Source: Candidatus Latescibacterota bacterium
Lineage (GTDB): Bacteria > Latescibacterota > UBA2968
Assembly (NCBI GenBank): GCA_965198115.1
Contig: OZ240241.1
Coordinates: forward strand, 1,504,001 to 1,568,000
Length of the DNA stretch: 64,000 nucleotides
Reading direction: 5' to 3'
Shown here piece after piece: positions 29,526-37,161 of this stretch (positions are counted from its first letter, which is position 1; the number at the start of each line of letters is the position of its first letter). A program made the translations under genes and the position numbers. The notes under the pieces were generated by a model that was not told the origin of the DNA, made no database searches, and saw only the letters and a list, made by a program, of their open reading frames with translations.

Positions 29526-31154
29526 CCTGAATTATGCATAAAAAAGGTAGTCTCCTTGTACAAGTGTTTGTTTTTCCCTACATTAGGGCTGACACATCAA
29601 AACAACACTTGGAAGGAACTACCGTGATAGAACCTAGTCAGATCCGGTTACCATTCGCAAGCATTTCGGGCAAGGTAGTTGAGGCTGATTTTGCCGGTGG
29701 CGCCGTCAGGAGTGACGGTGGAGTTCTGTTGCTTCGCGCCCTTGAGTCTCAGATGGGATTGATCGCCAGAATGGTAGATGCTTTGCGAGATCGTCGTCAC
29801 CCAAGCTATATCGATCACACGCTTTTGGATCTTGTGAAGCAGCGTGTTTTTCAGATCGCTTGCGGCTATGAAGATGCCGTCGATTGTGATGATTTGCGCC
29901 ACGATCCGGGCGTCAAGGCTGCCTGCGATCGGCTTCCTCTTTCCGGTCCTGATCTCGGGAGCCAATCAACGATGACACGACTTGAGAATGATGTGCGACG
30001 CTCGGATTTGTATCGGCTCGCACGGGCTTTTGTAGACGGGTTCATCGCATCGTATGACCAGGCACCCCCAAGCATCATTCTCGATATCGACGACACGGAT
30101 GACCCAACGCACGGTGCGCAACAATTTTCACTCTTCAACGCGTATTACAATGAACACTGCTATATGCCGCTACATATCTATGAAGGCCAAAGCGGCAAGC
30201 TCATTACGACGATCTTGAGACCCGGGCATCCGACGAACGGTAAACAGGTCGTTTCTATTCTCAAGCGCTTGGTGGAACACCTACGCGGATCTTGGCCAAA
30301 CGTGGAGATCATCGTTCGCGCAGACTCAAAGTTCAGCTCACCAGAGATGCACGATTTCTGCGAAGACAACGGTATCTACTACGTTCTGGGCCAGGGCGCC
30401 AACTCCAAGCTCAAAGCGGCTGGACAAAACCTGATGGACCAAGCGCTACGTCTGAGCGAGCATAAGGAGACGATTCGCTTGTTCTCATCCTTCTCATATC
30501 AGGCTGGCACCTACCGGCAGCCTCGCCGGATCATTCACAAGGCTGAAGTCACAAACGGCGAAGCAAATCCAAGATACCGCGTGACCAATTTACAGAGTAA
30601 TCGAGACGGCTTTATCTATGATCGTATCTACTGCGCAAGGGGACGCACGGAAGGCTTCATCAAGGACCACAAAACATTCCTTCACTCCGATCGAACATCG
30701 TGCCACAAGTTTGAAGCCAACCAGTTCCGACTCTTTCTACACAGTGCTGCATACGCCTTGCTTCACGCACTCCGATCACAGGGACTCAAGGGCACCGCGT
30801 GGACCAAACCTCAGGTCAACACGATACAGAACCGTTTCCTCAAAATCGGCGCGAGAGTCATTGAAAGCGCACGAAGAATCCGATTCCATTTTCCAACATC
30901 GTATCCACTCAAAAACGTCTTGGTGTCAATCATCACCAGGCTCGAAACGAACACGCAGTAACAACGCCGATCTATACCGGGGACAGCTATGTACACGTCG
31001 CAAAACAACACCTGTTCCGGACGAAAATCGTGACTCTTGCGACTCGTAGAGACCGCTTACGGGACCTTGGACATCCGAAGAAGCCGAGAACAAATCCTGT
31101 GCGTGATCACATCACTCCAAAACAACCTAAACTCAAATTCATGCATGATTCAGG
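29526..31154 (+). mobile_element. IS1380-family IS (transposase ~29624-30961)
   Basis: IRs cctgaattatgcat / atgcatgattcagg; SDGG.LL, GYED..D, LDID.TDD..HG.Q, VRADS.F, Y..RG..E..IK. Confidence 0.95.
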
Positions 31155-33044: not shown

Positions 33045-33476
33045 ATGCCCACTTCTCGCTTGCTCGGACCATCATGGTCGATTACCTAACAGCCGCGCGA
33101 ATCAGACTTCCTCTGCAGGCTAATTCGAAGGGCGAGAGGTGGCCAATACAACCAATCGGGACGCTTCGACTTCCGGCCTCTCGTCTTTAACCTGGCGCGG
33201 GGTCGATGTTTTCATTCTCGTCGCCTACCTGTTCATGACCCTCCTCTTCAGCCAACTCGGGTATCTGGATCGTCCTGGCGACCGTATCCGTGGTGGTGAC
33301 AGCGATCATTACTTCGTCTACCTCCCCGCCCTTCTCCTGAATGGCGATCTTGACTTTTCACACCTCATCAGGGATCTCGGCGGCGACAACGCGTACCTCT
33401 TTCCCTCGGACACCGACAGAGCTGGCAACCCTTACTCAATAGGCCCTGCCGTACTGTGGGCTCCGTTTTTCCTGAT

Positions 33477-34850
33477 GAGCTATAATCAAAAGGTGTGGAA
33501 AAAGAGAAAGGGCGACCCTACCCTTCCCGTGAGATAGTTGATTCACACAAAACCGGGTGAGAGGCCCGGTTGGGAAGGAGGATCGCCGTGAAGGAACATA
33601 CGCATAGAGCCCCATTGAAGTCCATGCCGACGTGGGAGACGGTTGACGATTGGATCCGTGAAGAGATCCAGGGCCGGTTCCAGTCCATTCTGGAGGAGGA
33701 GGCGACCGCGTTCTTGGGCCGGTCGTGGTATGAGCGCCGAGCCGAGGTCGATAGCTCCAGGGGCTACAGGAACGGCTACGGCAAGCCCCGGCGTCTCTCG
33801 ACGAGCTGCGGAACGATCAAGGTCCGGCGTCCCCGGGTTCGTGGTCTGGAAGAGCGGTTTGAAAGCCGCATCCTCCCCCTGTTCGCCCGGAGAACCAGGG
33901 CCATTGGAGATCTGCTTCCCGACCTTTATCTCCACGGTCTCTCCCAGGGCGACTTCGAGTTGTCTTTGCGTGCGCTGCTCGGTGATGGCGCGCCGCTTTC
34001 GCCGACCTCGATCGCTCGTCTTCGAGGGAAGTGGGAGGTCGACTTCCAGGACTGGAAAGAAAGGCGTCTGGATAATCGCGAACTGGTCTACGCCTGGGCT
34101 GATGGCATCTACGTCAAAGCCGGGCTCGAGCGCGAGAAGGCGTGTCTGCTGGTCGTGATCGGCGCGATGAGCGACGGCAGCAAGGAGATCCTGGCGATAG
34201 AACCCGGTTATCGAGAGTCTACAGAATCCTGGCTCACGGTGCTCCGGGATCTCCGGGATCGCGGGCTCGAACATCCTGTCCTGATCGCCGCGGACGGGAA
34301 TATGGGCATCTGGGCGGCCGTTGATCAGGTCTGGCCAGAGAGCCGGCAACAACGGTGCTGGAACCACAAGATCCTCAACGTGCTCGACAAGGTCGCCAAG
34401 CGTGCACAGGCTGAAGCCCGCGCACTGCTCGTCCAGATCCCCTATGCCGGCACGAAAAAGGAGGCCGAGAAGCTCCGGAAACGCTTTGCCGCACGGTATC
34501 GCTCACAGTTCCCTGCCGCCGTGGAGACGCTCGAAAGAGACTGGGATCGGATGGTCACGTTCTACGACTTCCCGAAGGAACACTGGAAACACCTGAGAAC
34601 CACGAACGTCGTCGAGAGCCCCTTTGCTTCCGTTCGGCTTCGCACAAACGCCGCCAGGCGATTCAAGAAAGTCAGGAACGCCACGACTCTCATCTGGCGT
34701 ACGCTCAAGGTCGCAGAGAGCCGATTCAGGAAACTCACCGCGCCACACTTGCTACAACAAGTCTACGATCAGAAACACTCAACCGGACCGCAGGTCGAAG
34801 CCGGGAAGATGGCCGCCTGATTTCTTTTACACACCTATTGACCTGAGCTC
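33477..34850 (+). mobile_element. IS256-family IS copy 1
   Basis: YRNGY, WADGIY, ES..SW, ADG, QRCWNH, LRTTNVVES; IRs gagctataatcaaaaggtgtg / cacacctattgacctgagctc; 9-bp TSD tttcctgat. Confidence 0.95.
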
Positions 34851-35533
34851 TTTCCTGATCGGCCATCTTGTCTGTCTCCTCACGGATTGATACACGACGG
34901 ATGGTCTTTCATCACCCTACCGGATGGCGGTCTACATCGGGAACAGTCTGACCACCGCATTCGGCCTGTTCCTGACCACTCGATTTCTACGAAATACGGG
35001 GTGTTCGAAAGTTGGATCGCTCGTCGCCATCTTGTCCATCATCTTCGCCACTCAGTTGACCTACTACCTCTGGCCAAAATCGGCAACATCTCACGGAACA
35101 TCCTTCGCTACTGTCGCCCTCTTTGCCTGGTCAGCTACGCGGTATGGCATCTCGTGGCAGTCAGGACTCACCGGAGGACTTGCAGCCCTGATGCGGTGGC
35201 AGAATGCGCTGATCGTCTGCCCGATCTCGATTGCACTACACGTAAAGCAGCGCGGAAGGATCTTCGACGCGTCTGATGCTCGAAAATGGGCAGCCTTCCT
35301 TGCAACCGCCCTGCTTGCCCTATCACCTCAAATACTGGTCTGGTGGTCCCTCTATGGTTCTCCCTTCGTAGTACCGCAGGGCGGGAGCTATGTGGATTTC
35401 TCCGATCTTCCGCTAGTGAGGATCCTGTTCAGCCCTCGTCACGGACTCCTCCTGTGGCATCCCATCCTCATCGCAGGACTCGGTGGCTTGGCGCTGGGCT
35501 ACCAAGGGGATAGGCATTGGATCACGGCAATCG

Positions 35534-36354
35534 TGTTACGGCTTACGATAAATTCCCGCCCAGACAACGCTATTCGCATTCTCACGCACCAAGAACTGAC
35601 GACCGGAGATAAGGGAGGATGAACTCTCTGGGCGTCCCGATGTAGACCGCGCCCTTTTCATTTTCCCACACGCGCGAGAAGTAGGCTCTCGAACCGCGAA
35701 AATAGCGCGTTTCGACCGGTTAGGCTCAAGACGTGGCCAGGCCAGGTCCCAGCGGGCATAGGGGGTGCGCGGTGTTGGCCCTGGGCGCGTCGCTGGCCCG
35801 AGGCCCGCACCAGGGGGGTAGGGGGGGTGGAAACGGTCAGCTCTCTTTTTTGGACACCGGTAGTGGACCGTTTCTTCTACTAAAACGTCCTAATTTTCGT
35901 TCCGGGGGGCGCATCGCGGCCGTTGTCGACGAAAGAGGGGTTTTCAGGTGTCGGAAACACTTAAACCAGTGCAAAAACAAGAGCTTGCGTCTGTCGACAA
36001 GGCGGCTTTGAAGGTGCTTCCCGAAAATGGCGAAGCGGGGTAGAAAATCGGCCGTCTCCCTGGCGGTGCTGCCGATGGCGGACCCGTCGGAGGTCGAGAG
36101 CGTTTCGCGTCCCGATCCCCCGGAATGTGCCAAACGCGTTCGCGTAAAGAAAGGGACATCAGGCGTAGGTCCGACAACCGCTTTTGGCCGTTGCGCCTTG
36201 TAAGTACTCCTATGGCACTATGTCGCATGGCCGCCAGATCTTAGGTGACCCTCAACTCATTAGGGAACGGTCTCCACTGTTAACCGTATTGAAACGATTC
36301 TGCCTATTCTGCGAATAGCTTAAGCCGGGCGGAGAATTATCGCAAGGCGTCACA
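35534..36354. mobile_element. non-autonomous 821-bp TG...CA element (MITE-like, IS21/IS481-type ends) with phage-like cargo
   Basis: 28-bp IRs (22/28) tgttacggcttacgataaattcccgccc / gggcggagaattatcgcaaggcgtcaca; 7-bp TSD gcaatcg; no transposase ORF. Confidence 0.88.
36027..36203 (+). CDS. 58-aa ORF resembling the N-terminus of a phage small terminase (truncated)
   Basis: manual translation MAKRGRKSAVSLAVLPMADPSEVESVSRPDPPECAKRVRVKKGTSGVGPTTAFGRCAL*. Confidence 0.45.
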   Translation: MAKRGRKSAVSLAVLPMADPSEVESVSRPDPPECAKRVRVKKGTSGVGPTTAFGRCAL

Positions 36355-37161
36355 GCAATCGGCATCGCTATCGTGCTTCAATGGGTCATGAACGCCGCCA
36401 TAATGGACTGGTGGGGAACGTGGTCTTTCGGCCATCGGCGGTTCGTCAACCTGTTGCCATTCTTGGCCTGGGGTATTGCGCTCCTCTACGATCGGCTGGC
36501 GGCTCGCCGACGTCTTTTCCTCGTGACCATCGGTTTGCTAGCGGTCTGGAACCAGCTGTTCCTCTATCAATATCAGAACGGGCTGATTCCCCGAAGCAAA
36601 AGCCCCACATTCACGGAGTTTGTGACCGATAAGTTTGGCCTGTCCCGCGTGTGGGAGGCCCAACTCCACGTCAACACGGCGATCACTGCCTTCAGACGAA
36701 ACGACTTCCCTAATTTCCTCAATCAGGCAAACACAGCCTATCGTACGTATCCTGAATACCGCAACAGCCGACTCGTGTATTCCGTGGCCGGTACGGCATT
36801 GCAGGACGGGGAGACGGCTGAATCACTCTTCGCCGCGTGGCATCAAGAAGAGCCGACCAACCTCGTGGCAACGTGGGGTCTGGCAGACGCGTGGATCAGA
36901 GCGAACAGACGCGATGAGGCGGCACGACTTTTTGAACCGAACCTTTGGGGGAAAACCGGCAGGGAAGTAGTCGACTTGATTCGTACGGGTAACGAACCCC
37001 TGATGGATCAGACGTTTTTCAATTTTTACAGGGCAGAGCTCGACTCCGTCTATATTCACTAAGCAGCATCCGTCTCACGCGTCACACTTGACCAGAGATT
37101 GGAAAAGGGGCTTATTCAGACCTCCATCGAGCAATCGTAATCACGAACAACGAGGCGAGCT

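Follow-up and report, generated by a model that had tools for sequence, protein, structure and literature searches.

What an 821-bp insert in a bacterial membrane protein gene is, what moved it there, and why it should carry DNA resembling a phage packaging origin are the questions raised by this locus. The insert lies within a 64,000-nt stretch of a Candidatus Latescibacterota genome (contig OZ240241.1, positions 1,504,001 to 1,568,000, forward strand), referred to here as the window; coordinates are those of the window unless genome coordinates (G000) are given. An earlier note, made from the letters of the window, had described a transposase-less mini-element with a captured phage packaging origin, and its claims are taken up below where the results bear on them.

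The element, its copies and its movement

The element occupies exactly 35534-36354 (plus strand, 821 bp), has TG as its first and CA as its last letters, and is bordered on both sides by the 7-bp target duplication GCAATCG (35527-35533 and 36355-36361, plus strand), in agreement with the earlier note; removal of the insert and one duplicate restores the host frame (...WITAI-GIAIVLQW), as had been claimed. The host membrane gene is present as three plus-strand pieces, the 5' piece at 33139-33476, the middle piece at 34860-35533, with a GT-C/PMT_2-like lead, and the 3' piece at 36362-37062; the first two are separated by an IS256-family element (33477-34850, plus strand) with a 9-bp duplication, which represents a separate event. 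The host had been called a glycosyltransferase; no Pfam glycosyltransferase match was obtained, and its ESM Atlas neighbours are PMT_2/GT-C-like, which provides a lead only. An IS1380 is also present in the window at 29534-30961.

The left inverted end (35534-35578, plus strand) starts with TGT and contains two sub-repeats at a 22-bp period, which are predicted to be transposase sites; the right inverted end (36310-36354, minus strand) is identical to it at 34 of 45 positions, and the 22/28 match given previously is reproduced within the shorter count. The inner inverted motif that had been listed as a separate feature is present, but is explained by the internal 22-bp period of each end, which is weak (8/22 and 9/22 identities). 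An ORF listing gives no long ORF, and the insert therefore has no transposase; no sigma-70 promoter or terminator was found in the element, and an Rfam scan of it returned a single chance match. The right-hand interior (36204-36309, plus strand) is nearly invariant in the alignment of copies.

The genome, a single contig of 8.43 Mb, was searched with BLASTN and with a scan for the element ends; 18 copies with both ends were found, together with 3 partial copies, and because of these the window insert is not a chance occurrence. The complete copies measure 751-823 bp in 17 cases, and one of 3598 bp is split by two IS insertions. Exact 7-bp duplications, each of a different sequence, flank 12 of the 18; one copy has a 6/7 duplication, three have none, and two share a single duplication at their outer ends, as a composite. 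The target sites (14 in the comparison) yield a loose palindrome, N-S-W-W-W-S-N; insertions are scattered among unrelated genes, several interrupt long frames, and several copies are seen to sit in, or abut, IS256 ends. Median identity among copies is 94.7%; the copies are young, and the retention of their cargo accordingly shows little. Inverted repeats, a fixed-length duplication at different sites, short length, multiple copies and the lack of a transposase are all found, and the element is a real, recently active MITE with an unusual, well-identified cargo. The count of copies and duplications proposed in the earlier note thus favours its description of a non-autonomous transposable element; a single copy and a cargo unlike phage terminase or cos regions, which it had named as grounds against its reading, are not what was found, the element being multi-copy and its cargo terminase/cos-like.

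There is good support for movement of the element by transposition in trans. An 11.3-kb unit (G000 1426120-1437467) has an identical direct copy at each end and is inserted in an IS256, a single 7-bp duplication being shared by the two copies; an intact IS256 copy represents the empty site, and 80 of 90 matches run across the junction. Encoded in the unit are a Mu-like transposase, a DUF3102 protein, a sigma-factor-like protein and an RNA-polymerase-beta-like protein of 1069 aa; the unit entered IS256 in one piece, and since it was moved by two copies, the element can move foreign DNA.

The ends have an IS21-like build, with TG...CA termini and two weak sub-repeats per end at a 22-bp period; duplications made by the IS21 family are 4-8 bp in length. 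Members of this family, including IS5376, likewise have a terminal CA, two sub-repeats per end spaced at ~22-23 bp (23 bp in IS5376) and little target specificity, whereas the duplications of IS5376 are 5 bp and those of the element 7 bp; the ends of Mu and Tn7 are built alike (excerpt of PMC10122671). The mobiliser is predicted to be IS21-like. A parent IS21/IS481 element with the same ends, as the earlier note had envisaged, was not found: the genome contains 22 IstB-model and 25 IstA-model matches, most of them broken, and the 17 IstA/IstB regions checked lack these ends. The element is not filed as an IS21 family member, as no IstA/IstB element with its ends was found; no parent transposase with these ends was present among the genome's IS21, IS3, Mu-like and ISNCY-like transposases. 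A tandem-site scan of the genome gave no other end (best score 18.7, versus about 35-38 for the element), and a right end at genome position 25523 near an IstB fragment was rejected as a candidate, as other repeat DNA separates the two. No autonomous partner was found in the assembled contig or in 167 genomes of the phylum, and plasmids or unassembled DNA could hold one. In one of the other genomes (G077), two identical regions agree with the left end at 20 of 21 positions; the match lies 170 bp past an IS3-type remnant, and no partner end was found. The parent of the element is lost, extrachromosomal or distant.

Phage packaging DNA within the element

The main packaging site, cos2 (35813-35897, plus strand), features a G-tract at 35813-35827, ACC at 35856-35858, a predicted 10-nt 3' sticky end at 35859-35868 (plus or minus 1), which is placed by geometry and is the most variable block among copies, and a predicted small-terminase box at 35880-35897, placed by geometry and phage comparison. 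G-tract, ACC, core and box are thus found at HK97/PAJU2-type spacing, and terminase would be expected to cleave at 35859-35868. A leftover G-tract (35754-35769, plus strand) is equivalent to the cos2 upstream arm of short-type copies; in the window copy it is followed by ~60 bp that include a second G-tract.

A training set for cos2 was obtained from a terminase-alignment scan of viral contigs, which found 310 loci, of which 80 were kept (45 with long upstream DNA, 25 starting 36-90 nt before the gene, and 10 unused); after 8 duplicates and 6 loci without a G-tract were dropped from the 45, a three-block matrix was made from 31 outside phage sites, its block layout having been chosen after the element had been viewed. 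Of the top 23 scores across both strands (16.8 million positions), 18 come from element copies and 3 from related sites at 8.397-8.403 Mb, 21 in all. With 20.5 bits, the window copy is exceeded by one background position and lies below 29 of the 31 leave-one-out scores of the training sites (median 34.7); the best copies reach 33.0 and one copy has 11.8, and 17 of the 18 complete copies reach at least 19 bits, exceeding all but 2 background positions. The proposal of a captured packaging origin in the G-tract region is strengthened by this ranking, and the G-tract and the ORF starting MAKRGRKS are both present as described. The BLASTN comparison that had also been suggested was unproductive: the element, its cargo included, gave just two chance matches of 50 bp (E 0.8) against phage records and none against plasmid records. 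Exact degenerate patterns retrieved nothing from viral contigs beyond one chance match within a gene.

Comparison with phages places the parts of cos2 more closely. At PHROG 12559 terminase loci, 16 of 25 short viral contigs have their start exactly 11 nt ahead of a [CAT]TAA box, which is the pattern expected of a physical left end. HK97 has a 10-nt 3' overhang and a small-terminase site at +15 to +29 from the cut (excerpt of PMC11331095); in this interval the HK97 record begins CTAACCCG, the window element has CTAAAACG and most copies have CTAATCCG, and the cos2 box resembles the HK97 site. The cos regions and small terminases of HK97, PAJU2 and D3 share with the element an order of G-tract, ACC, ~10 variable nt, 11-14 nt, a CTAA-type box with an A/T tract, and a terminase start with a basic arm (for HK97, excerpt of PMC11331095); in contrast to these phages, the element is without a preceding HNH gene, a complete terS and terL, and has a longer spacer and a second cos upstream. 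The spacer (35898-36026, plus strand), which is common to two non-MITE sites at 8.397 and 8.403 Mb, results in a distance of 171 nt from ACC to ATG in the window copy, versus roughly 50-100 nt in phages; a copy from another study has a shorter spacer in its place, with a third downstream arm and 78 nt from ACC to ATG, near the phage spacing.

The ORF directly downstream encodes 58 aa (36027-36203, plus strand); residues 1-35 (36027-36131) represent the N-terminus of a PHROG 12559 small terminase, and the remainder is unrelated. A phmmer search of 1.84 billion proteins returned 9 matches, to six of which residues 1-35 are 66-71% identical; five of those six proteins match PHROG 12559 (terminase small subunit) with E values of 2e-5 to 3e-17. 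The full-length relatives P0017, P0019-P0022 and P0025 match the same family (E 5e-29 to 3e-42), and over 33-35 residues the stub has 70-77% identity with P0019, P0020 and P0021. PHROG 12559 includes the small terminase of Pseudomonas phage PAJU2, the record of which starts 50 nt before the gene. With the stub as query no match was obtained in PHROGs, by tblastn against phages, or in a search for longer proteins, and it was not found in the 167 phylum genomes, where one weak match to a terminase core was seen in G130. The small-terminase assignment made from the first letters of the ORF therefore stands for its PAJU2-like residues 1-35, but not for the rest, and the family is corrected to PHROG 12559. 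The stub lacks the oligomer core and is frameshifted or stopped in some copies; as the N-terminal arm of HK97 reads DNA only within a nonamer (excerpt of PMC11331095) and the core is missing, the 58-aa peptide is most likely a non-functional, truncated passenger. The stub and cos2 belong to the same phage family, and judged by its sequence the cargo is phage packaging DNA, with a cos region ahead of the beginning of a small-terminase gene.

Truncated terminases are also seen outside this genome: among the outside proteins P0003-P0018 and P0024, many PHROG 12559 terminases are truncated at ~residue 83 by one and the same foreign sequence, of which this genome has a single occurrence (5957585). 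Modules of cos and truncated terS may be common in these communities. A different small terminase, of the HGGxSTG type (PHROG 1889, E 2e-11), lies at G000 5977504-5978073, 1.4 kb from a left-end-only copy of the element, on the other strand and near an integrase fragment.

A second cos-like site, cos1, probably lies upstream (35610-35682, plus strand) and is of the HK97/D3 type, with a G run at 35613-35618, ACC at 35646-35648, a T-rich arm and a CGCG-A box at 35670-35680; neither this site nor the allele variation among copies was reported in the earlier note. It displays the same order of elements as cos2 with a shorter G run, and its ACC is followed by GCGCCC, as at the ends of D3, PAJU2 and KpF5. 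It does not fit the 31-site matrix made for cos2; on a matrix from 17 outside HK97-type regions (15 viral loci, HK97 and D3), in which some rows are anchored one base off, it scores 17.2 bits, with 61 background positions of ~16.8 million higher and a range of 9.0-17.2 among copies, and the cos of the resident prophage scores 23.2. The sole outside-element match to the cos1 19-mer (majority allele, from which the window copy differs at one further base) at ≤2 mismatches is the resident prophage cos, which is also found by a profile of the element cassette at E 0.0058. A profile HMM built from the 17 outside regions is weak, as all its matches have E>1; the 11 listed include the prophage cos and three island sites, and no element copies. 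From these matches cos1 is considered to be derived from a relative of the resident prophage, because the core and box of the prophage itself differ from those of cos1. In the 3598-bp copy (G000 1815541-1819138), which has two IS256-type insertions, cos1 is broken by one of them, placed exactly in it (8-bp duplication), and in another copy the G run is missing.

The resident prophage is HK97-like and apparently whole (G000 about 642600-683000), with a hicAB-like pair inverted between the HNH gene and cos. It is the one terminase-bearing prophage of the genome and has the sole large terminase found; its gene order over ~40 kb is HNH, PHROG 83 small terminase, portal, protease, capsid, tail and integrase, the names being read from the sequences except where a family match is cited (PHROG 83). 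Its terminase pair is of another type than PHROG 12559; no full-length small terminase of the cos2 family was found in the genome, in which the family model finds 19 stubs only.

Variation among copies and occurrence elsewhere

Among 17 copies, diversity is highest at element positions 281-400 (0.21, 0.15 and 0.09, versus 0-0.09 elsewhere), and the copies differ most at the predicted cos2 sticky end. The cos2 alleles comprise 2 upstream arms, 3 core types and several box alleles, which occur in most combinations, and the swapped arms and cores keep the order of G-tract, ACC, core and box. Assignment of an allele to a particular copy could be blurred by polishing; further cos2 alleles are present as separate contigs in runs X1, X3, X4, X6, X7 and X8, so the allele pool is real. 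Each of the 16 other copies examined has 15-mers in common with the 8.40-Mb island sites that are absent from the window copy, in the spacer and stub as well, and conversion from such donors therefore explains the diversity peak without cleavage. A recombination hotspot at the predicted cut was considered, as two of the shortest incompatible intervals flank it (322-330 and 331-337); it is not claimed, because informative sites are densest at the cut and four-gamete conflicts occur along the whole element.

The region at G000 8392000-8404000 is a patchwork with a ParA gene and three cos2-type sites with different cores and no element ends; one of these sites is followed by a terminase stub after a 220-bp insert, a form that also occurs in run X4. 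The presence of cos2-type sites beside a ParA gene hints at integrated plasmid-like DNA. A 550-bp repeat unit that includes an ORF occurs at about five sites.

In the best-matching run, X1, both junctions of the window insert are found at a depth of 11-12 and the element at 124-409; this run checks the assembly and is not independent, as it may be the source sample. Run X6, from an independent study, contains a whole copy at another site, and pieces of the element are found in X4, X7, X8 and X13; 7 of the 23 listed runs were examined, as contigs, and the one RNA run among the 23 has 0.05 of the words. No empty-site contig was seen in the runs examined, in which the host gene is barely covered outside X1. 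The element was not found in 40 relatives or on plasmid or phage records; its ends gave no matches or chance matches against plasmids, and a metagenome scan returned one unrelated locus.

Possible roles of the cargo

The reading that is tentatively preferred, at somewhat short of an even chance, is that the element is a portable packaging tag, which is spread by a foreign transposase and cut at cos2 by a cos phage that packages the host replicon. A transposase supplied from elsewhere, predicted to be IS21-like, would copy the element round the genome; an infecting cos phage would then cut at cos2 and package the replicon that bears it. A workable substrate would be a circular replicon (plasmid or island) or a pair of direct copies; plasmids become phage-transferable when a cos site is cloned into them, one site being enough on a circular replicon (excerpt of PMC6739421). 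DNA packaged from cos to cos would reclose on entry, as a cosmid does, and reclosure would restore a complete element by joining the right part of one copy to the left part of the following copy. With two cos types and several sticky-end alleles, a wider range of helpers would be usable, and the cos cargo would in this way benefit the element. A single chromosomal copy could not travel whole, because cleavage at cos would divide the element; for cos terminases a second cos is required at a distance of about one headful (excerpt of PMC6687093), and the chromosome would be a poor substrate because 17 of the 20 same-strand gaps between neighbouring cos2-type sites are >100 kb and three are <60 kb (6.4, 10.6 and 31.2 kb). 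A more ambitious form of the packaging-tag reading is rather doubtful: a minimal phage parasite, i.e. a gene-less 0.8-kb transposon, that would hijack a DDE transposase inside the cell and a phage terminase between cells, collect the cos sites of several phages, renew its sticky-end allele by recombination at the cut, and turn plasmids and islands into natural cosmids.

Close behind the packaging tag, and nearly as likely, is neutral capture, in which two IS ends enclosed the debris of prophages or of a satellite multi-cos cassette, the element spread by transposition alone, and gene conversion with cos debris made the alleles. This is consistent with an IS-rich genome, of which ~1.17 Mb of 8.43 Mb (~14%) is repeated DNA, with the cos2-spacer-stub module that also occurs without element ends at 8.39-8.40 Mb and has alleles in common with the copies, with the frameshifted or stopped stubs, with the recurrence of truncated PHROG 12559 terminases in outside assemblies, and with the lack of a cognate helper terminase in the genome. 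It accounts less readily for two cos types within 250 bp, which make up most of the left half of the element, for arm swaps that rebuild a correctly ordered cos in a population where 17 of 18 complete copies hold at least 19 bits, and for the cargo being kept in other studies (whole in 1, in pieces in 4 more runs). An anti-phage decoy is improbable: some 20-40 chromosomal cos copies would titrate the small terminase or draw the motor to host DNA, fragmenting the chromosome, filling heads uselessly and lowering yield, with alleles that cover several phages. The high copy number, the several alleles and the two cos types would suit a decoy, but the copies are scattered, many inside genes, as selfish insertions are, and replicating phage DNA would outnumber 20 cos sites. 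A head filled from a single cos needs a further cos for its completion (excerpt of PMC6687093), which is in favour of the decoy; the same need for an end cut counts against the version in the earlier note, in which chromosomal copies start the packaging of neighbouring host DNA over about one headful to the right. That version is considered very improbable. In its favour, most copies have a cos2 of undamaged anatomy that is directed towards the flank, and two same-strand pairs have their members separated by 31.2 and 10.6 kb. Against it, the remaining distances are mostly too long (17/20 as above), the cores of the 31-kb pair are not the same, 18 copies would by a rough estimate give about one pair this close by chance, and the element itself would not spread in this manner. 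Cos phages are held not to transduce host DNA, as two cos sites are rarely a headful apart (excerpt of PMC6687093).

Several known systems resemble the element in part. Cosmids, Mud-P22 and Tn5cos, of which the latter two are engineered transposons carrying a packaging site, are alike in being mobile cassettes that bring a packaging start to new DNA; these are laboratory constructs, whereas the element is natural and gene-less and has variable cos alleles. MIC, IMU and TIME elements are non-autonomous IS derivatives. Prokaryotic MITEs and passenger-carrying IS derivatives are likewise short and multi-copy, with terminal inverted repeats and a duplication and without a transposase, and paired copies move the DNA between them (excerpt of PMC9330008); the cargo of the element, in contrast, is not a gene or promoter, but a cis-acting phage packaging signal of two types with a terminase stub. 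The cos PICI EcCICFT073 (cos1, cos2, RppA) is also a non-phage element with two cos sites, and, as the element would, depends on a helper terminase (excerpts of PMC6739421 and PMC9026076). PICIs are 10-15 kb in length, with an integrase, att site, replication and redirection genes, whereas the element is 0.8 kb, inserts at many sites with a 7-bp duplication, and has cos sites of the 3'-overhang HK97/PAJU2 type, not of the lambda type; no integrase ORF or att site and no rep/primase, AlpA or Rpp gene was found in it, and of the PICI features a helper-used cos is represented by the candidate cos sites. No MITE or IS carrying a cos site, and no natural counterpart of the engineered cos transposons, was found in the literature searched, which included few subscription journals.

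Known terminase-borrowing satellites are multi-gene islands with one att site, and a transposable cos would break both this rule and that on host-DNA transduction by cos phages; if true, plasmids and composite transposons would become packageable, and pairs of cos sites could be placed at will. Even if the cargo is neutral, the comparison provides a simple, tested layout for the cos ends of the PAJU2-type terminase family, in which the contig end lies 11 nt before the box (16/25).
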